A stretch of DNA of 57,279 nt, filler included, from Dimargaris cristalligena (lineage: Eukaryota), in NCBI GenBank assembly GCA_003614675.1. It is 3 parts of 3 records of this genome, joined end to end, with 100 filler letters (N's around TTAATTAATTAA, not from the genome) between each part and the next. Parts side by side here need not be neighbours in the genome. Positions count along the whole stretch, not along the records: positions 38,256 to 57,279 come from ML002744.1; 2 more parts are not named here. One strand, written 5' to 3'. Below the pieces are notes generated by a model. That model saw nothing but the letters and a program-made list of their open reading frames with translations, was not told where the DNA came from and did no database searches. This document shows, in pieces, positions 1 through 57,279 of this stretch (position 1 is the first letter of the stretch; every line of letters starts with the position of its first letter). The position numbers and the translations under genes were made by a program.

Positions 1-84
1 GAACAGCAAGTCTATCATCACCTTTCCCTTTTATTATCTATCTTTTCAAATAAAGTTCAGTTTTCAAGGATTTGATTTCAGTTC

Positions 85-669
85 TTTACACCTTCTAATC
101 CACCTTAATCCAGACACCATGCTGTCTACCCTTATTAGGCCTTATAGTGCCATATTAACTTTCCCATGGTCACCCCTGGTACTATGGGATTACCCTATAT
201 TATATAACCCTTCCCCTTCTGGACTCCAGCTCTTTGTACTAATCACTCAATATGCTGATCCGAAGACTCTTACAGTTACCATAAGAGTCTTCCAGATCCT
301 AGTAGCCATCTGGTTGGCCTATTTTCACTATATACCTTAGTTGCCTGTAGTCTTCCCTTGGGACCTCCCTCTAGAGTTGTCCCTACATATATATAACTGG
401 GTCCCCTTAGGACTAGTTAGATTCCTTAGCTTATTCTTACCCCCCTAGTTTACTCCAATAAACTCTATATATGCTTACCCCCTCATACTGATCTATAAGT
501 GTACCCACTGCATGTCCTTTACATAACCAATTACCTAGGCCTTTATTAGTTAGTACTGTACCCTGTACCTAATGCTAGTAGCCCACTTAGCCAAGTCTAA
601 GCCCCACCTACTATTAGAAGCCTATCCTTAGGACTCTTAATGGACTAAGAGTAATAAACCTAGGTGACA
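85..669 (+). mobile_element. Degenerate solo LTR (copy 1 of a ~580-bp LTR family)
   Basis: Aligns by eye over its length with 54369-54951 (direct) and with 55773-56344 and 57155-57279 (inverted). Ends ...GGTGACA. Internal TATATAA (~390) is followed by AATAAA (~457). Strongly CpG-depleted. The left boundary is degenerate. Confidence 0.75.
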
Positions 670-1161
670 GCCTAATTATACTAATATTCTGTTAGTATTC
701 CCAGTATCTTAGACCTAACAATCAGATTAGTGAGCACATAAAATTAATACCCTTTAGTTGAAGATACCTGTATAGGGGATAAGTAGTTTGCTATAGTAGT
801 TAACTACTTTTAATCTTCACTTAGTCTATGTGGGTACACTTCTATTAACTATACCACTTAAGGCCATCTCAACAAAGATTTACTCCATAGGGAACATGTA
901 ATTAAGGGATAACACTATATAATACCTAACACACCTACTAACAATATTGACAAATGTGAATAGTTAACTAGGTAGCCAAGAGGAAAAATATATTTTGAGT
1001 GTGACTATCTATTACAGATTTATCAAACTGCCGTTTCTCCAAATTATTGAAATTCAATGTTATGTATTATAGGTAAATAGTCAATTGCCTACAGTATCAC
1101 AAGGTCGAGAGTTTAATGGAATCAATTGTGACATGTTTTAAGGGTATTTGGAGTTTATTGG

Positions 1162-2026: not shown

Positions 2027-5000
2027 TTTGGAATGCTGGAGTACCAACAGTGTGAGTGAGAAGCCGATCCTTGAATTTGGCGGGGTGAGATGGAGGTCCA
2101 ACCCCAGGTCAAGAGCTGGTCCACTAGTCGGTTGCTACATGCACCAAGGTCTCAAACCATTGAGCTATGGCCATCATTGCCGATGCCGCCCCCCCCCCTT
2201 CTACATGATGGAGTTGCCTCGCCTCCTGCTTGAATCTGGTTGAATTACAATCTAGTGACATCCATGTCTTTGCTGGGAATCCACTCAACCGCGATTGACA
2301 CAGAGTTTAATGAATCGCAGTTGAGTATCTCACAATGAATACAGGAAGCTGTTTGGTTTGTTTTGCCATGCAATAGCCCTGTGGCCTCCTGTTGCTCTTC
2401 CCCCATTTATTTGAGCAGTCCCTGCCCGATCACTCCGGCCAAGGCAGCAAAAGATCGGCAAGTTGGCATTGTATTGCCTGAGCCATCTTTTTATATGGCT
2501 GCCCATCCCCCCTTTTCCATGTGCAGGAGTACTGTGGGATGCCGGTACAACAGGTTATCCTAATGGCTTAGAGCCTATTTATTTAAATCTGTCTAGATAT
2601 TGATATCAATAAGTCGGCCATGCGTAAGGCTAGGCTAAAAAAATGGCCTAGGAACAAAGGAAGGTTGATCTATTGGGTTCATCTTTGCATTTTACAACAA
2701 CCAGCTAGGATTTCCGCCAGTCGATTATTTGGCTTATTTTCCTTCTGCCCGCTTTTCCATTTCAACGACTGCCCACAGGCGATCTACATGAAATGGGCAC
2801 AAGTTTGATTATTTTCATATAGGTTGGCCTAGGCGGCTAATCTTTTACAAGGTGCTTTGAGATCCCCATTATCAACCCCTGCTCTATCGGGTCTACAAAG
2901 TCAGACCAAGCCCCTTACTCGCCTAAGCCTACCCCCCCTTGCCCTACTGCCCAGCCCACGGAGTGTTGAAACTGCTGATATTCTGGCCTTGCCCTTCACA
3001 TGTACCGTTTCTACATTTGCTGACCATAACATCTCTTCGTGACTCCGTCCTGCCAAGTATGTGGCCTATTTATTTCATTTTTTGCAGACAAGATATACGC
3101 CTACTCCAGAGACTGCTGTTGCAAATGTGTAGTCCAAGAAGGTAATGACCGCCGGAATACAGAGGCCTACCGGGACTGTGGACCACTGAAAAAGTATAGT
3201 CTATTCCGAATCATATGGACCAACGAACAAAGGGAGCACTACCTAATTATGTTTCCCATTTCGCCCCCTCTTTTGAGTGTTTGGTACCAAAGTACATGAA
3301 AACAAAATGGGAAAATTAGACACCTCTCAACTGAGGCCACTCTCATACCACTCTTGCTCGCCTGGTTCCCCTGTGTGCAGTACTAATAAATTGAACTATC
3401 CACAATTTAGTGGAGCAAAGAACGCCCTCTACCCATTCTCTTTACAGCCACTATATGTCAATATATGTTTGATATCCTCGGTAGCCCACAGACTCTATTA
3501 TAATAATAGAATAATAAATCGAAGGGTAAATGCAAATGTTTTTTAATGCAACTTAAAATAATTATAGAAGATAGACATAACTGCAAGTGGCAAAGCTAGA
3601 TGTCTGTAGTTGGTTTTATTGAGTTGGAAATAGCAGTAATGATGATAAAAACGTTGTTCCGAGATGATATAATCATAGATATGATATAGTCCCGATTATA
3701 GGACGGACCAATCAGAGCGATGAAATCGGTGGGGCGGCATAAATGAATTTCCGACAATTATTACCAACATGCCAGGCCAAAGAACATAAAGTTTACTTAT
3801 TTTTTTGAACAACTCCAAATAGGGTATCAATGCACTAGTCCTTTTAGAACAGCTATATCTTACTATTAAATAAAAACAAAGACTTATCGTTTTACACATA
3901 CAAACTAGAAGAAATGGGCTTTTTTCTGGTTATAACCATTTATTTCTACTTTTATTAGATCCTTAATAATACCCATTGGAGCCACTGAAGCTATGCGAAA
4001 GTATAGCTATAGTAGCTAATACAACTTGTGGCACTCACTATCCGGGCCATGCACTACAATCGATAGATCTGAATACAGAGACCCTCTAGGCCACAGTTAC
4101 CACTGGGTTTGACCTTATCAATGCGACGTGGAGTCAATGAGTCGACAATACAGTATGTACCTCCCGGATTCCCCTGGTATTTATTTGCCACTTAAGTGCT
4201 ATATCAAATAGCATCGTCTTTTGCCCCTTGCACTGGTACCGTTTAGAGGAAAACGAAGACTGAGTTCGAAAACTCTAAATATATAGTTCATCAGTTATGC
4301 AAATTTTTAGCTACTACTGTTGGGCAGTTCGCTGCAATAGAATTTTGCCACCCTCTATAAAATGATACTGTATTAAAGTATCCCTCGTATTTTTTATTGA
4401 TGCCCTTGGGACAGACTCTATCCAGAATGGGTTATTCAAATACTTAGGACAGCTATAGTCACCAGGAAATAAAATTAAAGGGTCTAGCATTGAGGGCCTT
4501 AAGAACCTAAATCCAAGCATGAAGCATGATGTTTAATAGTAAAACGCTGATGGAATAAGGGTAGATCATCTGAGAATTATAATATCCATTTTTTTACAAA
4601 GTGATGGTGTATATTTTGTAGGGGTTTAGTTGCCTGGAGATTGGTACCTGCCAGTCATCCATGTCCAACTGATATTTGTATAAAATATTATTTCACAAGC
4701 AATTAGTAAACAGGCCTTGAATTAAAATTAAAATACATTAAGAGAGTAAATAAGACCAAAGGGCTTAGACCTAAATCTCATATTTACATTCGCCAATACA
4801 CAAGCACATGGCCTAAAATATAAGCAACCCATCGTGATCGATTAAAGATATGGATGGAATATATTCACGATACACCCAATCACTGACAATGTATGCCCAC
4901 TTTTAATTTCAACAACCCTTTTATAGGTTATATTAGACCCTTGATTCGCATGAAAAGGATTGGGCTTTATCGATTTGAATGACAATTTAATTCCTGCTTT

Positions 5001-19029: not shown

Positions 19030-19129
19030 NNNNNNNNNNNNNNNNNNNNNNNNNNNNNNNNNNNNNNNNNNNNTTAATTAATTAANNNNNNNNNNNNNNN
19101 NNNNNNNNNNNNNNNNNNNNNNNNNNNNN
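19030..19129. other. Artificial contig linker (N44-TTAATTAATTAA-N44)
   Basis: 100 bp with a six-frame stop spacer. An identical structure is at 38156-38255. Confidence 0.98.
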
Positions 19130-21204: not shown

Positions 21205-24200
21205 TCAAATAAGCTCGATCCCATTCAGAAGACTAGGGTTGATGTCCGGATGGATTGGTTCATCTGATTGTAGGGACAAAACGGCAGCGGCCTGCCCTTG
21301 GTTGACTATTTGCATCAGGCTCACAAGGCTTGGTTGGGCGTTCTGGGGGGCACTCTGAAAATACCAGGTAAGTCCGGCCACCAACGTACCCACTAGACTG
21401 AAATCAGCTCATTGAAAGAGACCCAATCATATTAAGTTGCATTATTAAGAGTCAGTTATATGGGCAAACACCACATCAGATCTAGATTAGATAAATGCAA
21501 TCATGTTCCCCAGGGAGGCGTCCGACCATCACACATCCATTATTCCCTCAGCTGGAGGAATTATAAGATGCCTATGGTTGTACACAGTCAAACAATGAGA
21601 ATACTCTCATTAAAGCCAATCTCACTTACCTGTCCCCGGCACCCGCCACACTCCGGATGCTGGTACATAAATGGGCCGGGATATAAGCTAGTTCGATGGT
21701 GAGCGGGTATCCACCATCAATCGGGATAAAGCCCGCCACTTGCCACGCCGCCGTTCCCGACGGAAACCGCTCGGAAGGTAATTCAAGGGGGCGAATGGGC
21801 TGGGATAACCCACCTGGTATCCCGGTCGAGTCATCTGAGGACTGAGCCCGGTAGGCCCGAACAATAAGAACCCCTATGCTACCCAGTTTGACTACCAAGT
21901 TAGGCACGATGGTGGTAACGAGCATAAGGGCTTGTTTTAACATAGTTTGGGCAGTGGCGGGGGCTATAGTAGTAGCAGTAGAGCCCCCGGGCATGGAATC
22001 GGGACCCGTTTGTCGTCCACGACGGGCCATTACGGTTGCCCATGGGTGATGTAAGTTGGACACCAGTTGGCTGACATTGGCATCCCAACCATCCTGCCAG
22101 GCCGTAAGGGACTCCAAAGCCCCAAAGAGGGCGGCCAACTCGCTCCGGTCAGGAGTGGCGTAGTTTACCACCGGGTGACTGCTAGTCAGGCGACTAAGAG
22201 TCTGACGAAAACCTGGACCATCTGATATTCCCATACTGGTATGGAGGTGTTGCCATGCCTCAATAAGCTTAATGGCCTTTGGCCCCGAGGTGGGCTCGAA
22301 GACCGTACATAAGCAAGGCTGATACTGAGGGTGGATCACGCGGGCCACAGTAGAAGGAGCTAGGTTGCCATCGAAGCAGAGCACAGTGGGAGCACCCATC
22401 CTTGTCGGGTGGGCCAATAATCCAGTGAGGAGGGCATCCAATGCGTCAGTTGGCCCTTGAGTTAAAATGGCCATATCCGCTACCGCCACCACCAGCTCCC
22501 CATCGGGGCTATGCACCGCATTGTACACCGCCGTGGACTGGCCGGAGACGACTGACACATGGTCCGTTGCAATGGAATGTCGGGCCATATGGTCAGTAAT
22601 GCGTGCTCCATTGGTATCGGCCCCAACCCAAGAAACGAACCGTGGAGCCAGGCCCAGTTGCTGGCAAACCCGAGCAATGTTATAGCCCACCCCTCCGGTG
22701 GAATAGCGGGTTTCCCCGGGGTTGGATGTCCGTGTGTATTGGTCCCAGGGCCGGTTGGGTGATACAAGGGTACCCGGGATTTCACCAGCTGCAATGGTGC
22801 TAATGATATCCGTTGCACAGCCCCCAGCAATAATCTGCTCACAATGATCAGTTGCGGTACCAGAGATGAGATAAGGAACAGGTCAAGATGTTGTAAATCG
22901 TAGTCATTAGTGTCATGAAGTTTTTAAAGCCATGTATATTACCGTCAATGGTTCTACACTCCTGTAAGGCTTACGTACTGGCGAGGCATTGGGGAGCGGG
23001 TCTGCGTTCGGTATAGTCCCATGGGTTTGGAAGAGATATGGTTGATGGCTCATACCCGAGGTAGTCTAGTTTACAAAAAGTGGGAGGGGGTGTGTGGCAT
23101 TAGCATGGATAATATATATAAAAATAGCCTTTAGATCACAATGAATACTGCTAGTTGCACAGGATTTTATTAAGGGAAAATGTAAAAATATAGTTAGAGG
23201 GTGGTCTACATTCCCCTCCCCAATCCTTTCTTTGTATACATCATACCCTACTAAGCCAGACGATACAATATAATTCAGGGAAGGTTATAGGTATATGTAT
23301 AGATATAGATATAAGTGGCCGGTTAGTTGTACATGGTAATGAGCTGAGGCCGTCCATGACAACCATCAAGGGCTATTTACTTTAGCTTTTCGCAGGTCAG
23401 CCAGCTCCCGGGCAATGGTACTTCCCACTGTCGCGTTGTTTTTGATAAGAGTAACATCTAAAGGAGAGAGGACCAACAACGAAGGAAGTAGTAATTAGTG
23501 ACAAGGGGCCAGGGTTATTCTTACTCATTAGCATGTGGAGCAGAGGTGAAGGCAATCTACCTGGCTCAATGGGGGGTGTAGCAGTGACTAAAAGAAATAT
23601 TCGGATAGCGGAGGCAAGTTAGGTTATACATACTGGCTTTTAACGATTCACCCTTGGTTAATTCATTCACCCGTTGGAGTAGGAATGGAGTGACGTCTTT
23701 GCCCGAAATACCTCGGTCGCTGGGGAATAGTAATCATCAAGGAGAGTCGGATAGATCATAATATCACAAAATATTAGTATAGTCGGGGGGGGGGGTTATT
23801 CTGGGTAATACCGTTACACCATCAAGTATAGTGGCTTTGGAATTAACAACCCTTAAAAAATCAGGGTGTGGCTAACATGTACAATGGTGGGCCTACCTAG
23901 CCTCTTGGATGGCTTGCTGAATACTCTGCTGGATAAGGGCACCATTGGCCGCCCCTTCGATGGGGATGGGCACGGCCAGAACCATTCCAGTCTGCAGAGG
24001 TAGGCCCAGCTGGGTAGCAACTAAATGGGCGCATTCCCGAGTACTGGAAGTGAACCAGGGACTGCGACAGCCACTGTCAGCTGCGAAAAAAGCCGGGAAG
24101 GCCGGCCCCGGCCCCACGGTAATAACCGGCACCCCCTGGGTCTCTAAGTACTCCAGAGTGCGAGGAATATCGAGAATGGATTTAGAGCCGGCGCAGACCA

Positions 24201-24828
24201 CCGCCACGGGGGTGCGGCCTAGCTCCGTCAAGTCCGCGCTAATGTCCAGGGACCGGTGGCCATCCCGATGAACCCCGCCGATACCCCCGGTGACAAATAG
24301 CGGGATGCCACACTGGTGGGCAATCAGCATAGTGGTAGCTACAGTGGTGGCCCCCGGTAAACGTCGGCTCAGGACAGCAGCCAAATCCCGGCGGGAGGTT
24401 TTGACGGGCTGGAGGGCAGCGGGATTCCCATTAGGCAGGCGGGCGGTTTCGCCGAGTGCGAGAAGACGGTCGTTGGTGAGTCCCACTTGAATGCGACCAC
24501 CCCAGACGGCAATGGTGGCAGGGGTGCAGCCTTGCTCGCGCACAATGGCCTCCACAGTTTGGGCCGTTTCGATATTGGCCGGGTAGGGCATCCCGTGGGT
24601 AATGATGGTGGACTCCAGGGCAACTACCGGCCGGCCCACGGCTAGGGCCTCGCGGACCTCGGGGGTAACCTGGACAAAGTCGGAGCTGAGCCAGGGAGCC
24701 GAAGGTGCGGCACGCGTGGGGTGGTAGGTTCGGGAATGGGAGGGGAACAGTGGGCGGTGGCTGCTCCGGGAAACGGGGCCGAGCGGGAGAAGGAAAGGTC
24801 GGGTTAGTTCCCGCAGAGAGCGTAGCAT
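21205..24828 (-). CDS. Bifunctional pseudouridine-5'-phosphate glycosidase (PsuG/IndA) - PfkB pseudouridine kinase (PsuK) fusion
   Basis: Exons 24828-23897, 23719-23634, 23457-23381, 23065-22943, 22834-21630 and 21397-21205 splice in frame. PsuG motifs: ALESTIITHGMPYP, TGGIGGVHR, DISADLTEL, GKDVTPFLL, IKNNA. PfkB motifs: GGVGYNIA, GAGDSLVG. Confidence 0.93.
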
Positions 24829-25241
24829 GGTGGATAGTCGCGTGGCAAGTGTAAAGGGGGAAAAGAACTGAATGCGGCAACTACAGTTGTGGAGGTCGGG
24901 CCAAGTCACATATGCTGTAGGGCGTTTCAAAGTCGACGGACCCAAGTGACTCGCCGCCACCACGGCCCACGCTGGACCAGTCATTGTCACGCGGTACAAC
25001 CAGTGGGTGAATGGGCGAGTGCCCTTTTCTGACTATAGCCCACCAGCGTTTTTCCAGGCACAAAGTATTAGAGAGAGGCCCTCGGAAACCGAAACCTCTT
25101 CCTTCATTATATGGTGCTGTCCTTTACTCTTTCCTATAGTTATAGCCCGAGCTAGCGTCCGGGACTAGGAGTGTTTTACTCCACCTTGTTATCTTCGTGC
25201 ATTTCTGCATTGCTCTTCCCTTGGTTCAGTTGCCCAACCCC

Positions 25242-38155: not shown

Positions 38156-38255
38156 NNNNNNNNNNNNNNNNNNNNNNNNNNNNNNNNNNNNNNNNNNNNT
38201 TAATTAATTAANNNNNNNNNNNNNNNNNNNNNNNNNNNNNNNNNNNNNNNNNNNN
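38156..38255. other. Artificial contig linker (N44-TTAATTAATTAA-N44)
   Basis: Same structure as 19030-19129. Confidence 0.98.
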
Positions 38256-38718
38256 CTTGCCGGGCCGGCCTCCTATGATGGCATCCACCGGTATGGGCGG
38301 TGCCCCTCCTCCACCCCCGCCTCCCCCACCACCGCCCCCACCGGGTCCAGGTACGTCCAGACCCCCCGCCTGGCGGTCTCCCCCCTCGCCCCTCCCTCCC
38401 CAACCCCCCATGAGTATGGGCTACCAAAGCCAAACGGTCGCCAACCGATTATCCCAGCGCAACAGCCTGTCCCCGCCGCGTAGTTCCACCCCCACCGGTT
38501 TCCGGCTTCCGGGTTTCCCATCCGCCAACGGACTCGGTATGGCACCCAACGGAATGGGCCGGTCCCCCAGTCAATCGGTCCCCCTCCAAGAAGGTCGGTG
38601 GAATTTCCACTCCCCCGCCCATTTCCCTCCGCCACCCCGTCCTGCTAACGGCGCCCTGGGCAAGAAGATGTACCCGAGTGGTCGTAACATGGGAAGTGCC
38701 GTCCCTTTGCGTTTTTAG
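38256..38718 (+). CDS. VRP1: Verprolin/WIP-like protein, C-terminal fragment
   Basis: Polyproline tracts followed by EGRWNFHSPAHFPPPPR...KMYPSGRNMGSAVPL, matching the WASP/Las17-binding C-terminal motif of verprolin/WIP. Confidence 0.75.
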
Positions 38719-39386
38719 AAGCCGGCCCTGCACAGTGATCAAACCCTCACCTACCGTTACCGCGATATTATATATGGTTTAATTAGACCGAGCTGCTATA
38801 TATTTGTGTGTGCGGATAACTCCAAATCCTTTCTCAGGTATATTTCATGCGCCGGTTTTATAGTGAGATGACCCCTCCAGCCAGACGGTTATCGCTTTAG
38901 CCTGAATGAACTATCACATCTAAAAGCCGTGTACACCTATACTACGTTCAACCCAGCTATACGATGGAAACCCGGTTGCCTGGGTTTGGCTTTGCTGGAT
39001 TCGAATATATATACGCAATATTCTCCATAAATATAAATATATCGATATTAACTCAAAACCCTATTCGGTTTAAATGTAGTACGTGCTGTTTTACTGTAGA
39101 ATACTGACAAGGAAATAAACGGAGGTTGAATAAAAGGGTGGTGACCATGCTTAATATTTCATACGATATCGTTTGGGTAGTTTATAGGGCCTATTTTCTG
39201 CTTGACAACAATTCATTTCAAAAATCTTCAACATGTATTGAGATGGAATTAGGGAGCGCAGATTTTCGATACATCCCTTTTAATAATTAGCCAGGGGGTG
39301 GTCCTAGCCTTTCTCAGCCAGGCCCAACACGACACTTCCCTATGGTATGTAGATAGTCCGGCTTCTGAGCCTGTGTCTGTACAATA

Positions 39387-39524
39387 TGGGAGAAGTTCAT
39401 CCAAGCTGTATAACGAAAAATCCATTAGATTCGGCCAATATTACTAGTTAAAAATACATTTCCCATATATTCTCCCATACACGTATAATGTAAACCCTTA
39501 TATAGCTGGGCTGAATTTCACTCA
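39387..39524 (+). mobile_element. MITE, 138 bp, ~27-bp imperfect TIRs, TA flanks
   Basis: TA|TGGGAGAAGTTCATCCAAGCTGTATAA...TTATATAGCTGGGCTGAATTTCACTCA|TA. Homologous to 48851-48988 and 41240-41361. Confidence 0.8.
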
Positions 39525-39890
39525 TATTAACCCCGTGTACCTAATTGTCCGTCCTAGCCGAATTGTAGTTTCAGGCCCACTAGTAACTTTTTACCCTTCA
39601 AGAGGCCTTCAAACAGGAGAAGTCCAGCTCACCTATATCATATTAAAACATGTTTAGTAGGTCTAGAGTAAAACGGTTAAAAATTGTACCATTGAGTTTC
39701 CCATTTCTATTTCACCCTATTTTTTATATCCATTGTATTGGACTTTCTCCCGTCCAGTTTTAGCTAAGCCTTATCGCGTAGCCTTCTTATAGGGTTAACG
39801 TTCTTTGCATTTATTTGAATTTTTAGGGACGCATTCCCTTTTCATTGCCTTCCATTTCGTCTCCATCCAGGGTTTTCTATTTAGTTCAAC

Positions 39891-40691: not shown

Positions 40692-40762
40692 TGGGAGAGG
40701 TTCAGCCAGACTGTATAGTGGACAATCCGTTGGTTGGGATAGATACTATACTAGTTAAAAAT
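40692..40762 (+). mobile_element. Truncated copy (left half) of the 138-bp MITE
   Basis: TGGGAGAGGTTCAGCCAGACTGTATA...ACTAGTTAAAAAT matches the left TIR and internal ACTAGTTAA of 39387-39524. Confidence 0.6.
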
Positions 40763-41239: not shown

Positions 41240-41361
41240 TGGGTGAAATTTGGACCGGCTGTATAGTGGTATAAATGTGCGTGATAATATATATTTGTGG
41301 AGTATGGTTTTTGCCTCATTCAGCGGGTTTTTTGTTAAATAGCCTGGTTGAACCTCTATCA
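41240..41361 (-). mobile_element. MITE copy, inverted, internally deleted (122 bp)
   Basis: The reverse complement shares AGGTTCAACCAGGCT, GAGGCAAAAAC, TATACAGC and CACCCA with 48851-48988. TA on both flanks. Confidence 0.75.
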
Positions 41362-41693
41362 TAAGTCTGGAAATGGAAGTGGAATAGAGAGGCTCACTTG
41401 GCACGACGCTTATGGCTGGTTAATCAACTTTGGTGGGAATATCACACGTACTATTACTGAATTTTTATACATAGACTACTATCCAATCTTCCGTTGAATC
41501 ACTTTACCTGTTAGAAAACCAGCCACTAGCTTAACCCGTTATACTCGTTGTAATGCTAACATTGTCCCTCTTGTTTTAAATAGTCTACTATTACTCGACT
41601 CTGCATTTACCCAGGTCTTACACATTATTCCGTATTCCACTCTTCGTTCAACCATTTTCCGTTTTCTAGCTACTCCATCTGATCTTTGTTACC

Positions 41694-45069: not shown

Positions 45070-46433
45070 GTTGGAAGATATAATATAACGGGGGTAAACC
45101 GGATGTTGGGTGAGAAGGAGCACACGGCTTTTCTTTAATCAATAGGTCGGGTAGTAGAAATAATAGTAGCTGAAGCAATGGAATGGGGTTGCGAGAATTC
45201 AGTCCCAGGCCAGCAAGTGGAGTCACCAACCGATTCGGGGTGTAATTATATTAAATATGGGTTTAAAATAGAATTTATAATTATGGGGGGTTGGCGCAAT
45301 TGGCAGCGCGTGCGTCTCCAAAGCGCGAGGTTGGGTGTTCGAGTCACTCATTCCCCATCTTTTTGTATTTTTTTCCTTCTTAAACAGCCATTAGATTGGG
45401 CATTAATTTGTTGATTATTAATTCGTGCAAGTGGCAGATCCGAGTAATGCTCAAAGACATGCGTAATTGGGAGAACGGCAAGGGGAACAATAGTATCTGC
45501 CGTTTAATCAAGCAGGAGATTATCAGTATATCGATGGTTCGGAAGTAACAGTATTAACGAGGCTGTTAGAATAAGGCGCTCGGGAGGAGTTGTATTTTAA
45601 CTAAACGGGCAACCTCTATATTATTCTATATAGTATATGCTTGGACACCCCTCATAGTAACTCATTGCAGATTAATGATGACTTGTCCACCTGGTGGTTA
45701 GTTAGTATCGGTATCCCAGGTCACCTGCGGTAAGCCGATAGCCATATGAATAGCTGTTCCTCAGTGAGTAACTAAACTCCATATAAGCACTGCGCTCTTA
45801 ACGACCCCTCTTTAAACTCCCATCAACTGGAACTGACTCATCTAGTATGCCGGTCGTTCACTGGTTAATTTCCTGCATCCAGTAGTCTAGGTCATACAGA
45901 TAATTCCACTTTGGGACTTCCGTGTGGTTTACTTGACTAGTCTATATGGTCGGGTTGCGGTGCTCCAGCTGAGGCCGGGCCCTGTCTTGGCGTCAGCTCC
46001 AAAATACAACCCATTAAAATAGCAGCTGGACCATGACGCGATCTAGCCTTCTAGTGATGTTGTCTAAATTTATTATGCCCGTCACGGGTGCCCAATTGCA
46101 GTGCCCTTGGACGAAGGGAGTATCGGTGACTGATTACAATCATCTAAGCATCCGCCTCTTGCCCCTCGCTCAATTCCCCATTTATTTTCACACGACTTCC
46201 GGTTTGTTCATGTACTTTATCTATATATATACCTGGCTCACGTAAACCGCCAAACCTTGATATAAAAGAACGACCCGGTCCTATTTTCATCCCACCACTA
46301 TTAAAATATCTCGGAATACTTATTCTATAGCCATCCCAAGTGACCCCCCTCCCTCATAATATACACAGCTATTTTTTTATAAATATATATATTATCCAAC
46401 TTATATTCACCCCTTACATCGAGTGACTTCCTC

Positions 46434-48131: not shown

Positions 48132-48850
48132 CCATATTTAAGTATGTATTTTCGAACTTCATTCAACTTCTATTTAAAGCCAGGACTTTTCTATGCCTGA
48201 CTATTGAAATTTAGTAATTTATAATAGTATATCCAAACATTTCATCCATAAATTCGAACCATTATAATTCAGATGTATGATACTTTCCGGACGCGATATT
48301 TTCTATTGGGCATCAAATCCCATCCGTATTGGCTGAACCCTTGCATTATTGGGTGTGTGTATGCAGTGTTGGTGGGTTGACTTGCTTAGAATATATAATT
48401 AGCAGCTAAACTCCGGGTGCCTCTACCTCAAAGCAACCTTACGGCCATGGATTTACTACTTCGCCAAACTATTCATTCCAAATTGCTATTTGCATCCTAT
48501 TAAGCGCACATTAATTGGTTTTCAGGTAAGCGTGACTTAGAAGAAACCAAAGGAAGAGCTCAAGCAGGTGAATGCCTATTAATACATACCCGTACATAAC
48601 CGCTTATATGTAGATATTAGCAAAACCAAACTACTGTGCTTAGATTAATGGACGAGGGTCGCGAGACCATGCGTCGTGGCGTTAAACATTTAGACCCTGC
48701 AGTCAACCCCTCACGGAAAAGGAGAATTTATCACCAGCTATTAGTGTGCATAAAAACAAGGTCATATGATGGGGCTACTTATTTAATCGCCCCTAGCTGA
48801 AAATGTCTCTTCGAACTCCAATAGAGCTAGGCAAACACATTTTATTGATA

Positions 48851-48988
48851 TGGGAAAGGTTCAACCAGGCTGTATAACGATAAATCAGTTGGACGAGGCA
48901 AAAACTACTAGTTAATAATGGGTCTCTCATATATGTTCCCATACGCGTATCATCCAAAACCTTATACAGCTGCACTGAATTCCACCCA
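48851..48988 (+). mobile_element. MITE copy, 138 bp, TA flanks
   Basis: TA|TGGGAAAGGTTCAACCAGGCTGTATAA...TTATACAGCTGCACTGAATTCCACCCA|TA. Same length as, and colinear with, 39387-39524. Confidence 0.82.
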
Positions 48989-50733
48989 TAACTAGAGAGA
49001 GCTCACCAACTTACTCGGTAAAGCAAACCAGTGTATTCATGAAGTGGCCTCACTCCAAGTTTATAAACCATACCTGGTTATATATGGGGTGTCAATGCGA
49101 CCGCTGGGGAAGGTACCATACTGACCAATTTCCAAGGGGCCCGTGGTTTCTTTAGAAGAATGGGCGAAGTCGTCATAAAAAAACCACGAAATAACAACGG
49201 AATGTCTAGGCAGATAATATATAGCTGTAAATTATGGCCATTCACGCAAACCTAAGACATTCACTATAAAATTATACTGTCTGGCACATGTTTATCTTTA
49301 GCAAGAAATAATCACTCACATGTCTTTTGGTAACTTCGCTATATTATTATCCAGCTATTTATGACATGACTTCCGGTATATGCTCAAAAAGTTCGGACCA
49401 CCTACTATAGGCGGCCTGGAATTGAGAATATACGACATTCCTGGTAGTTAATAATTCCTTGTTATTAGCAGGTATCGTTTGCCCTCAAGATATTGAGCAC
49501 ACGGGCCATGGGAATCCGCGATATCTCTACCCAAGGGTTGTTCAAATGCTATATTGTTATACATTATATACATTATTATATATTCACATTTCCAGTCCAA
49601 CGGCCACTAAACAGTAGCCTATATATTTTATTTGAAACTCCAGCCCACCTACACACAGCCATTATATCTCACTGGGCTACACCTTAGCAACACTTTTTTC
49701 TATTAGTTTCAACTGAATTCATTGCATCAATAATGTGTCATTTGATATTTTCCAATCACGAAGGTCCCTTTCCCGCCTTCTTCGTTCTCACTCATGTTTT
49801 CTTCCGAATCCAAAACACCATGCAGCAGCTATTCATAGAAGTTGATCAGTCAGACCAAATGAGAGAGTCTACTGCGAACTAAAACGGAAAACTCAAACCA
49901 CTCAAAGTCTTGTCCGATAATACAACTTGTATCCACAAAACCGACTTATTCTTAAATATTATGATTATTTTAGGCTACGGTAAATATGCCTATTTGAAGT
50001 CTTTTCGAAATACCCTTGGCCATTCAATCTGATTTGTGAAGTCGGCATTGCCCCTAAAGCAGAATTTCGCGCGGGCTTACTGATGGGTAATTATAGGGAT
50101 GGGACTCACACCCCCTCCCATTGTGAAGTCGAACGCACCATCAGCTAGGAAAGTTCCTCTAAAACGATGCTCCAATTGTGGTTGGGGTATTAGACTACTT
50201 CATGGGAATTCAAGAACCAATGCATTTGGAATTGAGCACGATCATATTCACCCAGAATATAAAATCCGGAAGATATTTCGATTTTCACACACTCGTTTGA
50301 GAAGAAGTGTGACTAAACAATAGGCATATGCCAACCTGTGCCCCATGGTACCCATAGATCTGCAGGTAATAGATACTGTCCGTTCTTGATATCTTATTCC
50401 TATTATCCACCAGGAATTGGCCATATAATACCATCCAATGCGGCCACCAGGTTCTTAAATCAGCATTAAATCGCTAGTTTGCCAGTCTTTTCACCTGTTA
50501 CTATCCACTTTTGTCTACATGTACTGCTGTCCATCGACCACTGTCACCTTAATCTACACATCTTTCACCTAGCTTTATTATTTGATTTGTAATATACGCT
50601 CATTGATTCCAGTAGTCTTTAAATGCTTGCCCGTGGCCTTTGACTCGGCTTAAACCATATACAATACCATTTCTTCCTCTATCCCTACCCCCTTTCTTTC
50701 TCCATTTTATACTTGTCAGACTGATTGTACAAC

Positions 50734-53728
50734 ATGGAGAAGCCTTTTTCTGATGTGACACCTACCATGGTAGTCACATTTAAACTGGCCGAATTTTGGT
50801 GGGAAGGCGCTCTTTTGGCGGTCGGCTTGGCTCTGCTGTTCCAAATTTCCCCTCCCGATGGTTTCCGTATTCATCCAACTGGGATGACCTTGGTTTATCT
50901 CACTATTGCCGCGTTTTTAATTATGCGTCGCTACCGCCTGGGTCACCACTTGTTAAAACCGCGTCGAAGAGATGGTGAGATCACAAGCGTTCGAGTAATG
51001 ATAACTAGTTCTCCCTATACACAATTTCGCATTTCAAATTGATTTTAGATCCTAACCTATATTATATTGGTTGACCTATGTCGATCGTTCGTTTTCGGGT
51101 TGTAGAATTCCTGTCTCTTTACCTTTCTAGAGCTTCACGGGCTGGTCTCGAAATACCCTGGCTATACACCACCCAAGCAATGATGTGGGTAGTATTCATA
51201 TTCATGTATATTGAGGCCGCCGCAGTGTTTTTCGCCGTTTATGCTGACCCTGCCACGCCGACGGACTGGCATCCCTGGCTCAGATCTGCAACAATTCAGC
51301 AGGTTACCATTGCCTTCACCGCTGCAGTCTACCATTTCTTGTTCTCCGAGGCCAATTTTCAGTCCATTATCAAAAAAACCCCCAGTTGGTTTCCCCACTG
51401 GCTACAACTCTGGGTGGTGGCGGTTGTTTTCCACACCTGGGAGCTTGGTCAACTTGTGCTGAGTAGCGAATATCCGAACAATAGTGTCCCCAGTGCCGAT
51501 TATTTTGCACGCTACCTTACACTAGGTATTGTGGTTACCAAATTATTGTTGGCTGTTCTTAGCGTAGCCGTCCCTATCTTTGCCATGTGGTACCATGCCA
51601 TTGGTATTTTCTCGCAAACTGAGTCACCTCAAGGCCCGTTGGAGCCACAGACTGTGAAGAACCGGACATCTTCTGCGAATAACGAGTATAGCGATAGTGT
51701 CCCTCATACCTATTACTCGCCGTGGGTAGTTTGTACCCGAACATTTGGCATCATTTACGACCTGGTGTTCCCTTTGGACCTTTCCGTAGCCCTTCGACTG
51801 GCATCGAGCTTGGTGTTTGAGCTCTTTACCCAATGGGCCCGGGCCTTTGAACCGGGTTACTATAAGGATCTTCTCGATGCGTTGGCTATTCGCGAATTAG
51901 CCTTCCCCGCTGTGATCAGATACAGCGTGTCCAGCATGGTCAACGAATTGGTAAATGCGAATTGGAGGCCAAAAAAATACCGCCATAACAATGTAAAATC
52001 ATTCATCAATTCCAGGTGCGAGGTGTTCCTTTACTCAGTTTCGCTGGCCAAGTCTATGCGTTTTCACTCAGAAAATGCTGGTCGCCGACAGGCCAATATG
52101 CACTTCGATGCCGCCCGAGGCCTGGACGGATTTGTGGACCTTGTTTTCGTCAGGTTAGGACCCGCCCTGTTTGGGATGCTGGTGTCTGTTTACCAGTATC
52201 GTTGGATTTACAACTCATACTTCATGTCTCTTTCGTTAGCCATGGGTATATGGGAATTGGCCACAACTGTTGTGATTATTCCTGTCTTATACCTCAACCA
52301 ATTTTGGCTTCTTAATCGGTGCTCGGACGAATCTCATGACAGCAACATGGCCCTCATTTTATCCGACCTGGTAAAGCAGTATGCAGGGGAGCAGTTTCAC
52401 ATCGATAGGCACCTGGACCTCATCACCAAGGGACGAGATGGGTCAAAGGTGAATCTTTCCGCGGATAATGATATAACGTTCAAAGATGTTCACCGAATGA
52501 TCCAGAAGCTACTCCAATTTATAGGTATTATTATGTGCCTGAGGCTTCTTGCCCGGGGGGAAATGAAGTCCACCGACGTTCTATTTTTTGTAACTCATTT
52601 TAGCGGAACATATCGGCCATTGACTTACTTAGCCAGTCTCATCCGCGAGACTATACAAGTATATACTCATTGCCAAGCCCTTCTGCGACTTATCGATAGT
52701 GGCAATGAGGTATGCGACCCCGACGACGCGCCTGCCAACTGGGATATTTCTGAAGGTACCATTGAGTTTAAAGACGTGTATTTCAGTTACAACTCGAAGC
52801 ACCCGGTGCTAAACGGTGTCAGCTTTAAGGTCCAGGGTGGTACCACCACGGCGATTGTCGGCAAGACCGGGGGTGGTAAAACTACAATCACCCAATTAAT
52901 CGCGCGTTTTTACGACGTTAACCGGGGGAGTGTCACTATTGACGGGGTCGATGTACGCCACGTAAAGCAGAGGGACCTCCGCAAGTCCATATCAATAGTG
53001 CCGCAGGTAAATTACTAGCGATAAAATTAGTGTATATATATTCATCGATGTTCTCATGTCTTTTTCGTTTAGGTTGGTTTAAAATTCATTAACCCCGACC
53101 TGTCCGACTGTATTTTATTTGTTTTAAATATTCTTGTTATAACTATGCTCCATCCGGCTTCGATTTTTCGCTTTGACCTGGAAATTTGGATTGAAAGAAA
53201 GCCGAAATTCTGCCTACAACTATCCGGCATAACATTCAATACGGCTCGGCTTCCACCGGCATGAGTGCCACGCCGAAAGACGTCCATGAGGCTGCTTGCA
53301 AAGCGCAAATCCATCAAACAATTTCTTCCCTTCCTTATGGTTATGAGACGCCAATACATGGAAAAAAGAGTACGTTTAGCGGCGGAGAAATCCAGCGTAT
53401 CAATATCGCGCGAGGTTTGATACAACCACACAAAGTTCTACTTCTAGACGAGGCCACATCGGCCTTGGACATGATTACCGAGCGGAAGGTCCAGGGGGCG
53501 CTCAAAGGCGATAATCAGGGTAAAACATGCGTGGTCATTGCCCATCGCCTGTCGACCATTATTCACGCGGACCAGATTTTGGTTCTCCAAGATGGAGGAA
53601 TCGCCGAGCGGGGCACTTTTGCGGAGCTAACCGCCTTACCCGACGGCATCTTCAAAGAGATGTGGGACTCTCAAATGAGAATATCCGAGGGATCCGGAAC
53701 TTCAGTGGCCCCGAAACCTACCATGTAG
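50734..53728 (+). CDS. ABCB-type half transporter, HMT1/ABCB6/ATM1-like, with divergent TMD
   Basis: Exons 50734-50974, 51106-53006, 53198-53728. Walker A GKTGGGKTT, Q-loop IVPQ, signature FSGGE, Walker B LLLDEATSALD and H-loop IAHRLST. Extra N-terminal TM region. Confidence 0.9.
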
Positions 53729-53778
53729 GTAGCGACATACAACAAGTATCCTTATACTACTACTCATATATAAATTAA

Positions 53779-54261
53779 CAGTATACCATGATATCACCCT
53801 TTTTTTAACCCAGTTTATTTTGAATGCAAGTGATGGAAGTTCAATCTGTGTTGCCAACCATTTAAGGGGCACCGCCGGTTTGTCTTTGGGAGTGTCAGCA
53901 GGAGGGGGAACCCCCGGTTTCTTTCCACTGGACAGGTCACCATATTTCGTCATATAGTGCAGAGGGTTGGATTTTGCTGGGTTTGAGGGGGTCGAGACTG
54001 GGGTGGCCTTGGGGAAGTCGCCGCTGATCTTCTGGTCATCCATCACGTTGTACGTCATTGTCTTGCGTCATCAGTTGATAAGAAAAATAAAATAAACTAA
54101 AAGCGTTATAAAAAAACGTTATAATCAAATGGTATAATCAATTTGGTACTCGTAGATACCACAGCTTCAAACTAAGTGAATGAAAGTAAAACAAATAGGA
54201 GTAGTGGCAATAAAATAATCAAATAAAAACTGGGTAAAGGATAATCATTGGTATTATCTAG
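53779..54261 (-). mobile_element. Possible non-autonomous DNA-transposon (hAT-like) relic
   Basis: Imperfect inverted repeats (~53779-53822 vs ~54221-54261, core ATACCA..TGAT..ACCCAGTTT) flank a minus-strand peptide PLKWLATQIELPSLA that recalls the hAT dimerisation motif. Confidence 0.3.
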
Positions 54262-54368
54262 TAAAGTTAATATAAATGTTTATTCTGAGTAATAGAGGCT
54301 TATATTAAAAATAACATATTACAAAAACACTTATCTTGAATTTAACTTGTCCCTTCAACTGAGGGGAT

Positions 54369-54951
54369 TGTTGGCCCTCCTAATCTGACTTAACTCAGAC
54401 TTAACAATTGCCCACCCTTATTAGGCCTTATAGCACCATATTAACCCTCCCATAGTCACCCCCAGTACTCTGGGATCATTATTCAGTATATAACCCATCT
54501 CCTTCCAGCCCTAATGCTTCACACAAAACACTCAACCTGAAAATCCAAAAGAGTCTTCCAGTTCCCATGAGAGTCTTCCAGATATAAAGCCATCTGGTTG
54601 GCCCATCTATCTACCTATACCTTAGTCTTAGTAGCATTTCCCTTGGGACCTCTCTCTGGAGCTGTCCCCATATATATATAACTGGGCCCCACTGGGACTG
54701 GTTTAATTCCTTAGCTTATTCATACCCCCAGTTTACCCTAATAAACCCTATATATACTCATCCCCTTATACTAACTAGTAAGTGTACCCACTACATATCC
54801 CTTGCATATACCTGTACTTATCCTTAATTAGTTAGTACTCTGCCCCCATCCTAATGCTAATAGCCCACTTGGCTGAGTCTAAGCCCCACCTACCATTAGA
54901 AGCCTATCCTTGGGGCTCTTGACAGACTAAGAGTAGTTAACCTGGGTGATA
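54369..54951 (+). mobile_element. LTR copy 2 (TGTTGG...GTGATA), preceded by a polypurine-tract-like GAGGGGA
   Basis: Homologous to copy 1. TG start, TATATATAA at ~54672 and AATAAA at ~54740. No CpG seen. Confidence 0.8.
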
Positions 54952-55772
54952 GTGGGAGCTATCAGTTATATTGACAATTAAAGAATACATACCTTCCCAT
55001 ATTATTACCTGTTATACTATGAATACTATTAACCAAGTAATCTGTTATAATATTATAGTATGTCCTAAATATATAGTAAATGGCTGCCCAAGGAGGGTAT
55101 ATATAGTGCATAATAAATAGTCAGCCCATTTCAATATGCCCACTAGTACATTATTTAGTGACTTAAATATGCCAAGCTAATGAGTATGCCAAGTAAAATA
55201 GGGAATACATCTGGTAGTATTGATTGGTCTTTTGTGAGAGTCCCAGCCACAAATGTAGTAGAAGTTTTGGTAAGTAGGTATTATAAAGTGGCAATATGTA
55301 GCTCCATGAGCACTGTACCAACTAGGCTTTCACCATTTGGTTATCAGTTTACCCACTGATTCTGATGGTGATTTGATGATTATTGATTATTCTGATATTT
55401 GCAATTAATTTTGTCTGATATGATGAATTATATGCAAATCTTTTCCACTCCTTTTGGGAAGTCAATACTAATTTGTAACATTTATTATTTTTACAACCAT
55501 ACAATATGACAAATTTATGACAATTTAAAATATATAGTGTAAATTTTCATATTTAAATAACCATTTTTTGCACCTCTAGTACAGAGAGCCCTCTTTGAAG
55601 CAGAGTACAACATTCTGCCATACCATTCCATTTCCTTCACAACTTGTTTTTAATCCTATTTGTAATGATTAATTATTTTAAATAAATATTATATTCATTT
55701 CATACGGTACTTTTCTTTCCACTAATTATTGCCTATATTAATAGTTCAATTATTTATAATTATTATAATAAT

Positions 55773-56344
55773 GGTTACCTAAGTTTACCATTCTTAGTCT
55801 GTCAAGAGTCCCAAGAATAGGCTTCTAATGGTAGGTGGGGCTTATGCTTGGCCAAGTGGGCTACTAGTATTAGGATGGGGCACTGTACTAGCCAATAAAG
55901 GATAATTGTGGGTATATGCAAGGGATGTACAGTGGGTACACTTACTAGTTAGTATGAGGGGGTGAGTGTATATAGAGTTTATTGAGGTAAACTGGGGGAT
56001 ATGGATAAGCTAAGGAATTGAACCAGTCTATGATGGGGCCTGGTTATATATACATGGGGACAGCTCCAGAGGGAGGTCCCAAAGGGGGATACTACTAAAC
56101 TATGGTATAGACCAACCAGACAGCTTTGTATCTGGAAGACTCTCATGGGAACCAGAAGAGTCTTTGGATCAGCAGGTTGAGTGTTTTGTGCAAAGCATTG
56201 GGGCTGGATGGAGAAGGGTTATATAATAAATGATGATTCCATAGTACCAGGGGTGACTATGGTAGGGTTAATATGGTACTATAAGGCCTAATAAGGGCAG
56301 ACAATCATTAAGTCCAGATTTAAGTTAGATTAGGAGGGCTGACA
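55773..56344 (-). mobile_element. LTR copy 3, inverted relative to copy 2
   Basis: The reverse complement begins TGTCAGCCCTCCTAATCT and aligns with 54369-54951 throughout. No CpG seen. Confidence 0.8.
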
Positions 56345-57154
56345 GGTGTCTAAGGGATCTTGAAAAGTGGACTGTTGATCCACTGAAAACTAGTTCTGCC
56401 TCCCTGTCTAAGGTGGATATTCACTATAAATACACACTGGGGGACATCCCAGTTCAGTGTTTTAATAAAGGGATGAGGTCAGTCAAATACACTGCTTAGA
56501 TTACTAGAAACTAATGTTGGCCTATTTGACAGTAGACTCCCATTTTTCTTGGGAAATTGTTTTGCAATTTATCTCCCCCCACTTTGGTATTATCCCACAT
56601 CCACCAAATTTTAAGAGTGCTCCCCCCTTCCCTATTTGCCACTTATTCTACCTATCCTTGCCCCGTCATATAGAAATTGGACTGATAAATTTCTTAGGAG
56701 GGTGAGCTCTTCAATTTATTAGTTATTGCTGTTGCCATATCAATACAGAATCAATATTAGATGCAAGCCTTGTGTCGGTAAATTATCTAGTGATGTATCA
56801 AACTGCGGGATTTATAGATCTAAAGTGTAGTCCATCCACATGAGTCACAGAGTTTCAGCTACTATACTAGTTGTAGGATTATCAATATAATATACTATAT
56901 ACCCCGTCCCATACAGCCGGGGGTTGTGCTCCAGATATTTTTGCCACATAATAATAACAGAGCTAATCTAATACTAACAACCATTCAAAGGCCTGTTTTA
57001 CTCAGTATTTGTGATTTAATAAGAGTGAAACACGAGGGTGATATATGTTGCCAAGGATTATAGCAAACAGTTAGTCAGTAACTACCATGGACAGTACAAC
57101 AATCCATTAATGAACCAGTTTCACATCCGGAATATGATAAAAAGGGTATGCTGC

Positions 57155-57279
57155 TGTCGCCCGAGTTAACCACTCTTAGTCTGTCAAGAGTCTCGGGGAT
57201 AGGCTTCTAACAGTAGGCGGGGCATTGGACACGGCCAAGCGGGCTACTAGTGTTAGGGGGGGATGACAAGACTAACCGA
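57155..57279 (-). mobile_element. LTR copy 4 (3' end only; contig ends inside it), CpG-intact
   Basis: On + it reads TGTCGCCCGAGTTAACCACTCTTAGTCTGTCAAGAG..., matching the start of 55773. About 7 CpG in 125 bp. Confidence 0.8.

Follow-up and report, generated by a model that had tools for sequence, protein, structure and literature searches.

Sharply bounded CpG erasure in transposon-like blocks of Dimargaris cristalligena is probably a footprint of cytosine methylation

The window, i.e. the whole stretch of 57,279 nucleotides that was analysed, consists of three contigs of Dimargaris cristalligena joined via artificial N-linkers. The host was originally predicted to be a non-Dikarya fungus, and this is borne out: D. 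cristalligena belongs to the Zoopagomycota, and the E2 protein is 100% identical to that of this species. A gene-rich interior (1031–54152) lies between two CpG-poor blocks, both of which sit at contig ends (Table 1). The right block begins ~95 bp past the start ATG of an ORF on the minus strand (53702–54058; 118 codons). A repeat of ~565–585 bp occurs four times in the window, copy 4 being truncated, and copy 1 is on a different contig from copies 2–4.

Table 1 Features of the CpG-poor blocks and adjacent DNA (positions are those of the window).
Feature	Position	Strand	Remarks
Left CpG-poor block	1..1031		Start of first joined contig; 1 CpG (261); CpG-free gaps of 261 and 771 bp
Repeat copy 1 (LTR-like, ends ...GGTGACA)	85..669	+	Decayed; BLAST 91-670/685 vs copies 2 and 3, 77-78%
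Non-repeat DNA in left block	670..1031		0 CpG vs 9.0 expected; no Pfam family, 6 frames
Right CpG-poor block	54153..56663		1 CpG (55705)
Repeat copy 2 (TGTTGGCC...GGTGATA)	54369..54951	+	0 CpG; 83.6% to copy 3 over 578 bp
Spacer between inverted copies 2 and 3	54952..55771		1 CpG total; no Pfam match
Repeat copy 3, inverted relative to copy 2	55772..56344	-	0 CpG
CpG-free DNA, no second copy among public-run contigs	56345..56660		0 CpG vs 13.1 expected
Intermediate-CpG DNA, no second copy among public-run contigs	56661..57154		7 CpG vs 16.6 expected, o/e 0.43
Repeat copy 4 (starts TGTCGCC), cut by window end	57155..57279	-	7 CpG kept, at least 3 ancestral lost

A single CpG remains in 1–1030 (position 261; observed/expected ratio, o/e, 0.03) and another in 54153–56660 (o/e 0.01), compared with 2685 in the interior (o/e 0.83), so that the counts match the original description of one CG in each block and CpG-rich genes elsewhere. 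The segment 56661–57279 contains 14 CpG (o/e 0.56). The four longest CpG-free gaps of the window (1554, 959, 771 and 261 bp, with 45.8, 39.2, 25.2 and 7.9 CpG expected from base composition) are all within the blocks, the interior's longest being 246 bp, and windows within the blocks have a mean CpG o/e of 0.025 (n = 31). The blocks are AT-rich (GC 0.25–0.44) and non-coding, as would be expected if unselected AT-rich DNA had lost CpG through a general bias in mutation with no involvement of methylation, genes keeping theirs via selection. Low-GC DNA of the interior argues against this explanation: 300-bp windows there have a mean o/e of 0.68 in the GC 0.35 bin (n = 22) and 0.80 in the GC 0.40 bin (n = 72), and only one of these 94 (1/22 and 0/72, respectively) falls below 0.2. 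The CpG borders are also step-like, at 1031, 54152 and ~56660, and a short dispersed repeat in the interior retains 3 and 4 CpGs vs 3.9 and 5.6 expected. Mutational bias, already disfavoured, is extremely improbable; CpG erasure is confined to the blocks, with genes and ordinary low-GC DNA spared.

The repeat ends in TGTC(A/G)...TGACA, giving TG...CA termini with a short terminal inverted repeat, and use of copy 3 as bait matched >100 contigs per position among contigs of public runs. Its termini, length and high copy number are those of an LTR. Inspection by eye revealed no target-site duplication at copy 2 or copy 3, no Pfam family reached the curated threshold in the three spacers (six frames each, 18 in total, stops read as X), and BLAST of the spacers among themselves and vs the window gave no similarity beyond the four repeat copies. 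Because target-site duplication and Pfam domain are lacking in these searches and the spacers are mutually dissimilar, ‘LTR’ stays a likely label only. All four of the repeat copies originally described are real, and every string quoted for them is present. A head-to-tail joint (56344 to 57155, exactly end to start) is present in one contig in each of three runs, and a scan of metagenome contigs with a degenerate repeat motif gave no matches.

Other readings of the arrangement were set aside. The spacers were not identifiable as transposon coding remnants (no Pfam family in the 18 frames); two weak Pfam matches in them (E 0.009 and 0.04, below the cut-off) were taken as chance. The inverted arrangement of copies 2 and 3 (821 bp apart) would suit a DNA transposon bounded by long terminal inverted repeats. 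This was rejected as the main reading: copies 3 and 4 form direct repeats, divergence between copies is 16%, and most members of the family occur as separate units. An amplification or assembly artefact was rejected, as a run of another sample from another study shows the same arrangement, with 2–3 differing letters per ~920 bp.

At 23 inferred ancestral CpG sites, copies 1–3 provide 69 cells, none of which is still CG: 27 read TG, 28 CA, 13 TA and one something else. TG and CA are equally represented (binomial p = 1.0), so that the loss is strand-symmetric. Copy 4, which retains 7 of at least 10 ancestral CpGs, had been described as keeping CpG at positions where copies 1–3 have TG, CA or TA, and this is true at 7/7 of its CpGs (TA in 6/21 cells). 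The proposed derivation of AGTGTT/AGCATT/AGTATT (alignment column 623) from an ancestral CpG fits the same mix of TG, CA and TA, and the CG-to-TA double changes, for which a second hit in CpA/TpG context is needed, are the 13 TA cells. At another such site, position 57224, where copy 4 reads CA, other genomic copies have G in 28–44 contigs per run, and in contigs running past copy 3 (n = 37) the consensus of the onward parts carries two CpGs. Loss may be age-dependent: copy 4 is the only less-decayed copy in the window, and CpG-bearing copies exist elsewhere. Strand-equal replacement by TpG and CpA and confinement to blocks are both traits of 5-methylcytosine (5mC) decay. The succession of TG and CA states in each copy was inspected by eye for strand runs, which would point to processive events; eight consecutive CA in copy 2 stood out, and nothing else did.

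Copies 1–3 are old. Their pairwise identity is 0.77–0.84, lowest for copy 1 among the three full-length copies (0.773 and 0.786), and they differ by 22–45 transversions per ~565 bp (4–8%). Transition:transversion (Ts:Tv) counts are 85:45, 82:38 and 68:22 (ratio 1.9–3.1) between these copies, and 139:31 places across genomic copies in one public run (X1). CpG retention of 0/69 corresponds to a value below 4.2%, and change at CpC+CpT is 11/135; given the age of the copies, a CpG rate at least ~19x that of CpC/CpT is enough for total loss, although 0/69 sets a lower bound on the CpG rate only, and is also compatible with an active process of much higher rate.

Such a process would be a RIP- or MIP-like defence, in which repeats would be recognised (e.g. 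before meiosis) and undergo bursts of enzymatic methylation and deamination of cytosine, with CpG preferred first and CpA second and with leakage into adjacent and linker DNA. Total CpG loss is consistent with it, but with 4–8% transversions and Ts/Tv of 1.9–3.1, rather than the very high Ts/Tv of RIP, a burst is unnecessary. Its second preference can be examined in non-CpG contexts. Polarised C-to-T changes affect 9/94 CpA vs 13/354 CpC+CpT (p 0.029), rising to 7/18 vs 11/135 (p 0.0014) with copy 4 as reference and three hidden CpG sites removed, and TA at ancestral CpG cells (13/69) also exceeds CpC+CpT change (11/135; p 0.037), all of these p-values being optimistic since copies 1–3 share ancestry and the cells are non-independent. 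Referenced to copy 4, C>T is found in 27/42 CpG, 14/27 CpA, 9/69 CpC and 2/66 CpT cells. The C-to-T excess at CpA is modest, ~2.5-fold to 5-fold, and a direction-agnostic comparison of YpA with YpC+YpT is not significant (23/124 vs 27/195, p 0.27). The order originally proposed, CpG first and CpA second, agrees with the CpG loss and with the polarised comparisons but not with the direction-agnostic one. The original prediction would also have reduced to passive decay with no CpA excess; as a modest excess is present the idea stays alive, without rising above methylation decay. Among 33 repeat rows (seven spacer rows being dropped), 11 of the 15 C>T or G>A places examined are at CpA/TpG by reference context. 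This can be cited for an active defence, but the count is ambiguous, as many CpA/TpG of copy 3 are decayed CpGs and the rows come from 40/286 variable places.

Classical RIP thresholds are TpA/ApT of at least 0.89 and (CpA+TpG)/(ApC+GpT) of at most 1.03. Copy 1 falls on the RIP side of both (1.72 and 0.77), with 1.39 and 1.02 for copy 2 and 1.24 and 1.09 for copy 3. However, little-decayed copy 4 gives 3.0 and 0.71, so that the values of copy 1 may simply reflect the composition of the family. In the spacers (CpA+TpG)/(ApC+GpT) is 1.19–1.31 vs 1.11 in the interior, the product excess expected from CpG changing to TpG/CpA, and TpA/ApT is 0.96–1.0, with no TpA surplus and no CpA depletion.

The loss had been characterised as repeat-targeted and RIP-like, and neither term is demonstrated. 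Copy status of right-block DNA was judged from contigs of public runs, a second copy being counted at >=80%. Two segments represented by one contig per run (54953–55328 and 56345–56660, together ~690 bp) contain 0 CpG vs 23.7 expected, 10.6 of these in the former; the remainder of the spacer (55329–55772) has one further copy (444 bp, with 54 mismatches and 8 gaps) and 1 CpG vs 6.7 expected. CpG loss appears domain-wide, as it is as complete in stretches with no second copy among these contigs as in the repeats. The dispersed repeat of the interior keeps its CpGs. The state of the one-contig segments could be due to leakage, domain-wide decay or repeats too old to be recognisable. As for ‘RIP-like’, the loss is strand-symmetric, Ts/Tv is low, the spacers fail the classical indices and YpA is not in significant excess.

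RIP of Neurospora crassa and other Pezizomycotina is RID-dependent, prefers CpA, produces very high Ts/Tv and acts on duplicates in premeiotic bursts; in Neurospora it also leaks into linker DNA. Shared with the Dimargaris blocks are C-to-T/G-to-A changes in repeats that reach linked non-repeated DNA and include CpA to TpA. Unlike Neurospora RIP, in Dimargaris CpG is hit much more heavily than CpA, opposite to the RID-type preference, with total loss at CpG and a secondary effect at CpA, and the copies are old, with DNA that has no second copy among the public-run contigs equally affected. Within the same phylum, a composite RIP-index signal is given for Zoophthora radicans and other Entomophthorales in the available part of PMC11105155, which likewise suggests a repeat-associated C-to-T bias outside Dikarya. 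The analysis in that part of PMC11105155 is a window-based TpA/CpA index with no copy alignments or CpG analysis, whereas copy alignments in Dimargaris identify CpG, not CpA, as the main target. The accessible text of PMC12543289, a kingdom-wide k-mer screen, restricts RIP-like signatures to ascomycetes and labels D. cristalligena ‘no_rip’, although the screen looks for enriched rather than depleted k-mers. Taken with the symmetry and Ts/Tv of the copies, a RIP- or MIP-like origin of the blocks is unlikely. That Dimargaris, and perhaps Kickxellomycotina, have an active CpG-first, CpA-second hypermutation defence triggered by repeats or heterochromatin is a still more doubtful proposition; if true, it would be a RIP/MIP-like system outside Dikarya, missed by k-mer screens that score enriched and not erased k-mers.

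CpG erasure is what DNA methylation usually leaves behind on transposons, and it does not prove a RIP-type defence. The blocks probably reflect 5mC-type CpG decay of methylated transposon DNA, with weaker decay at CpA, the methylation, the enzyme and passive deamination all being inferred. They would consist of dead transposon DNA, in which LTR-like copies (solo or truncated) of a family with very high copy number are accompanied by unrecognisable filler, most likely CpG-methylated as silent chromatin by DNMT1/Masc2-type maintenance, perhaps with DNMT5. Spontaneous deamination of 5mC would then convert every CpG to TpG or CpA, the strand affected being random, across the whole methylated domain including its non-repeat parts, leaving sharp edges and sparing genes and ordinary intergenic DNA. 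The partial decay of copy 4 and its flank presumably reflects later insertion or methylation. A weaker C-to-T excess at CpA/TpG would turn some TG/CA into TA, for which low-level CpA (non-CpG) methylation in the same domains appears the most economical cause. A pure CpG-maintenance enzyme does not predict raised C-to-T at CpA, and this counts against methylation decay as formulated here.

The same footprint could be a fossil, made when an ancestor methylated transposon CpG that the present fungus no longer methylates. Every fully decayed copy is old, DNMTs are frequently lost in fungi and, according to the portion of PMC13297926 available, early-diverging fungi in general are dominated by 6mA, with 5mC near-undetectable. 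The scarcity of 5mC in such fungi also counts against methylation decay as the main explanation. Part-decayed copy 4 and its flank instead suggest that decay continued on younger DNA, and relatives in the Kickxellales keep the relevant genes: the section of the PMC10538959 supplement that covers them records DNMT1, CDCA7F and HELLS for both Coemansia reversa and Linderina pennispora, and marks the latter as 5mC-positive. Such machinery in relatives also speaks for methylation decay. A fossil origin is accordingly very unlikely. Literature searches turned up nothing published on methylation or on mutation of repeats for Dimargaris or Kickxellomycotina. The type of footprint is a known one, seen here in a lineage that has had little study, and on present evidence it is not a new kind of mechanism. 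The completeness and sharp bounds of the erasure argue for long-running cytosine methylation of transposons in Dimargaritales, and screens for enriched AT-rich k-mers overlook footprints of this type. Practical value is modest, the blocks serving as a clean example of domain-wide vs copy-specific decay.

CpG-signature C-to-T decay of fungal transposons was reportedly described by Horns and colleagues (Horns et al. 2012). In Microbotryum and rust fungi, C-to-T decay at transposon CpG is attributed to methylation by Masc2/Dnmt1 class IIA, with which the CpG signature is associated, and to subsequent deamination of 5mC (Amselem et al. 2015, PMC4352252, in the sections available). Dimargaris resembles these fungi in that C-to-T change is concentrated at transposon CpG, genes are spared and there is no dominant CpA signature, but differs in its host, a member of the Zoopagomycota (Dimargaritales) and not a basidiomycete, and in its secondary CpA excess; a TpCpG preference of the Microbotryum/rust type cannot be read in the Dimargaris blocks, as every CpG is gone. 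Tuber melanosporum, for which the same sections of PMC4352252 give a predominant CpG and secondary CpA signature and CpG-methylated transposons, is similar in its order of contexts (CpG first, CpA second) and its methylation-linked reading, but is an ascomycete listed there with genes of the RID/Masc1 and Dim-2 classes. In vertebrates, symmetric decay of CpG to TpG/CpA scales with methylation and time and is genome-wide (PMC13297926, in the portion cited above), unlike in Dimargaris, where loss is confined to transposon blocks and the rest is CpG-normal.

The two terminal blocks of the window, in which the original prediction counted a single CpG each, were confirmed to have lost almost all of this dinucleotide, and the counts were reproduced exactly (Table). 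The four longest CpG-free gaps of the window (1554, 959, 771 and 261 bp, where composition predicts 45.8, 39.2, 25.2 and 7.9 CpGs, respectively) all lie within the blocks; the longest in the interior, between the blocks, is 246 bp. Ordinary low-GC DNA keeps its CpGs, a control that held: interior 300-bp windows have a mean observed/expected CpG (o/e) of 0.68 in the GC 0.35 bin (n = 22, one below 0.2) and 0.80 in the GC 0.40 bin (n = 72, none below 0.2), versus 0.025 in block windows (n = 31). This contradicts a mutational bias acting without methylation, which we regard as extremely improbable. Chance, or a small old relic, could account for each of two CpG-poor patches in the interior (4386–4791, 2 CpG vs 11.6 expected; 23057–23261, 1 vs 7.3), neither of which has a matching repeat in the window.

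Coordinates and CpG content of features in the window (exp., expected CpG).
Feature	Position	Strand	CpG	Remark
Left block	1–1030		1 (o/e 0.03)	
Repeat copy 1	85–669	+		
Interior	1031–54152		2685 (o/e 0.83)	
Artificial linker	19030–19129			44 N, TTAATTAATTAA, 44 N
Artificial linker	38156–38256			44 N, TTAATTAATTAA, 44 N
Short dispersed repeat	39384–39526		3 (exp. 3.9)	
Short dispersed repeat	40692–40762			weaker match
Short dispersed repeat	41307–41363			inverted match
Short dispersed repeat	48848–48990		4 (exp. 5.6)	
Right block	54153–56660		1 (o/e 0.01)	
Repeat copy 2	54369–54951	+		
Repeat copy 3	55772–56344	-		
Right flank	56661–57279		14 (o/e 0.56)	
Repeat copy 4	57155 to window end	-		125 bp only

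Both blocks are located at contig ends, and repeats are the usual break points of draft assemblies. Three contigs of ~19 kb each compose the window and are joined by artificial linkers, so copy 1 of the repeat found in the blocks lies on a different contig from copies 2–4, and genomic adjacency of features in 1–1030 and 54153–57279 is not implied. The repeat unit (~565–585 bp, four copies in the window) has the ends TGTC(A/G)...TGACA. Pairwise identity is 0.773 (copies 1 and 2), 0.786 (1 and 3), 0.84 (2 and 3) and 0.73–0.77 (copy 4 with the others), and each pair of full copies differs by 22–45 transversions, with a transition/transversion ratio (Ts/Tv) of 1.9–3.1. Copy abundance was gauged from contigs of three public runs placed on 54953–57279 at ≥80% likeness: the repeat is very abundant (1591–3391 contig pieces per run), and among the places listed 40–111 contigs often agree on one alternative letter at a position. 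The limits of the unit are confirmed by single contigs, one per run in all three, in which 56344 is joined directly to 57155, exactly end-to-start. Several contigs from other genomic copies omit 83–96 bp at 55874–55971 of copy 3 and many part from its sequence just past 55874, pointing to a family with length variants or a hypervariable segment there. The repeat is likely, rather than proven, to be an LTR, because no target-site duplication, PBS/PPT or coding remnant was found adjoining any copy. The spacers (non-repeat DNA of the blocks) gave no Pfam family at threshold in 18 frames. Copy 3 is inverted relative to copy 2 (84% identity; 54369–56344), with an 821-bp AT-rich spacer (GC 0.29) between them, and is in direct orientation to copy 4, 811 bp away; there is no similarity between the two spacers, and nested solo LTRs or rearrangement are possible origins of this arrangement.

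Ancestral CpGs were called where copy 4 has CG, or where copies 1–3 show both TG and CA, giving 23 sites in the unit. The predicted decay was borne out at these sites, with CG kept in 0/69 cells (site × copy states) of copies 1–3, replaced by TG in 27, CA in 28, TA in 13 and another state in one. The balance of TG and CA (binomial p = 1.0) shows that the two strands were equally affected, and retention of <4.2% (0/69), set against 8% at CpC+CpT, places the CpG effect at ~19-fold at least. Seven CpGs remain in copy 4, from which at least three have gone (alignment columns 623, 664 and 692). CpG-bearing copies are present elsewhere in the genome, since at one of these lost sites (57224), where copy 4 has CA, 28–44 contigs per run from other genomic copies have G, and two CpGs occur in a consensus built from 37 contigs where they continue unlike copy 3 beyond 56293.

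Simultaneous deamination of both strands of a CpG leaves TG in one daughter and CA in the other; TA is unreachable in one step, so every TA reflects a further transition at TpG or CpA. TA occupies 13/69 ancestral CpG cells, compared with C-to-T in 11/135 CpC+CpT cells (p = 0.037). With copy 4 as reference, C-to-T was found in 14/27 CpA, 9/69 CpC and 2/66 CpT cells; three of the nine CpA/TpG sites of copy 4 are really decayed CpGs, and their removal leaves 7/18 CpA versus 11/135 CpC+CpT (p = 0.0014), or 4/6 versus 8/43 per site (p = 0.026). Cell counts in all these comparisons overstate independence, given the shared ancestry of the three old copies. With copy 1 as outgroup to polarise changes along the branches to copies 2 and 3, and with inferred CpG columns removed, C-to-T was found in 9/94 CpA, 7/180 CpC and 6/174 CpT (p = 0.029), with T-to-C at 1–6%. 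Direction-agnostic transition polymorphism was not significant (YpA 23/124, YpC 16/93, YpT 11/102; p = 0.27), and neither CpA depletion nor TpA surplus was seen in the spacers ((CpA+TpG)/(ApC+GpT) 1.19–1.31 and TpA/ApT 0.96–1.0; interior, 1.11 and 0.91). We read the CpA excess as real but modest, ~2.5-fold to 5-fold and far under the CpG effect; the proposed secondary CpA target survives as this excess.

Targeting of repeats as such, also part of the original prediction, is not supported in the copy-number sense. Inside the right block, segments 54953–55328 and 56345–56660 contain 0 CpG against 10.6 and 13.1 expected, and each is represented by a single contig per run, in all three, with no second copy at ≥80%, although a gap in contig placement proves nothing about absence of a second copy; 55329–55772, with just one further copy among run contigs, has 1 CpG against 6.7 expected. 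A short dispersed interior repeat (~70–143 bp, 75–79% identical) retains CpGs and may be a MITE-like element escaping erosion. With segments showing no second copy among run contigs erased and the dispersed repeat spared, the erased unit appears to be a chromatin-sized block, not each repeated sequence. The borders of erosion are step-like (1031, 54152 and ~56660), and the block filler could be transposon debris too old for recognition. Rightward from 56660, o/e is intermediate (0.43) over 494 bp for which run contigs gave no second copy, and reaches 0.74 in copy 4, which fits younger or later-silenced DNA.

Symmetric and total conversion of CpG to TpG/CpA, confinement to transposon blocks and reach into DNA with no second copy among run contigs, together with old copies of ordinary Ts/Tv and a part-decayed younger copy, argue for CpG methylation of silent transposon domains, which would be followed by spontaneous deamination of 5mC; we infer each of the methylation, the responsible enzyme and passive as against enzymatic deamination. 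Low-level non-CpG methylation of the same domains would be the simplest account of the CpA excess. The part-decayed copy 4 and flank weaken the reading of the blocks as the fossil footprint of a methylation system since lost, which seems quite improbable. Basidiomycetes, Tuber and vertebrates are well-known cases of methylated transposons decaying with a CpG signature; literature searches found no account of methylation, or of mutation in repeats, for Dimargaris or Kickxellomycotina, making D. cristalligena a new lineage for an already known kind of footprint. CDCA7F is a hemimethyl-CpG reader. DNMT1, CDCA7F and HELLS are listed for two relatives in the Kickxellales, Coemansia reversa and Linderina pennispora, the latter marked 5mC-positive (PMC10538959); Amselem et al. 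(PMC4352252) link such CpG signatures of Microbotryum and rusts with Masc2/Dnmt1 class IIA enzymes, and describe a CpG plus secondary CpA signature in Tuber. A 2026 review has 5mC near-undetectable in early-diverging fungi (PMC13297926).

The RIP-like (repeat-induced point mutation) defence originally proposed was not substantiated. An active RIP/MIP-like process would accommodate the CpA excess, the rate is bounded only from below by the total CpG loss, and a RIP-index signal was reported for another Zoopagomycota fungus (PMC11105155); however, no observation requires such a process, the hallmarks of CpA preference and very high Ts/Tv were looked for and did not appear, and classical RIP indices are negative in the spacers and mixed in the copies; we consider an active process unlikely. 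In a 2025 kingdom-wide k-mer screen, RIP-like signatures are limited to ascomycetes and D. cristalligena is scored 'no_rip' (PMC12543289); the screen scores enriched k-mers, and CpG erasure would therefore escape detection.

Eukaryotic genes in the window include those for Sec7/PH, P450, ABC transporter, GST and 2-oxoacid dehydrogenase E2 proteins, among others. The E2 protein matches that of D. cristalligena at 100% identity, with other Dimargaritales next (76–79%), identifying the organism as a Zoopagomycota (Kickxellomycotina) mycoparasite, rightly predicted to be a non-Dikarya fungus. The interior also carries a tRNA-Trp (CCA) gene (45284–45359, +). PfkB kinase and indigoidine-synthase-A-like (pseudouridine-5′-phosphate glycosidase type) domains occupy neighbouring open frames (21626–25032, -), which may be a single fused or split pseudouridine-salvage gene. 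A 118-codon ORF (53702–54058, -), a candidate gene, has its start ~95 bp away from the border of the CpG-free block; it overlaps the region of the ABC-transporter gene at the 3′ end of that region.
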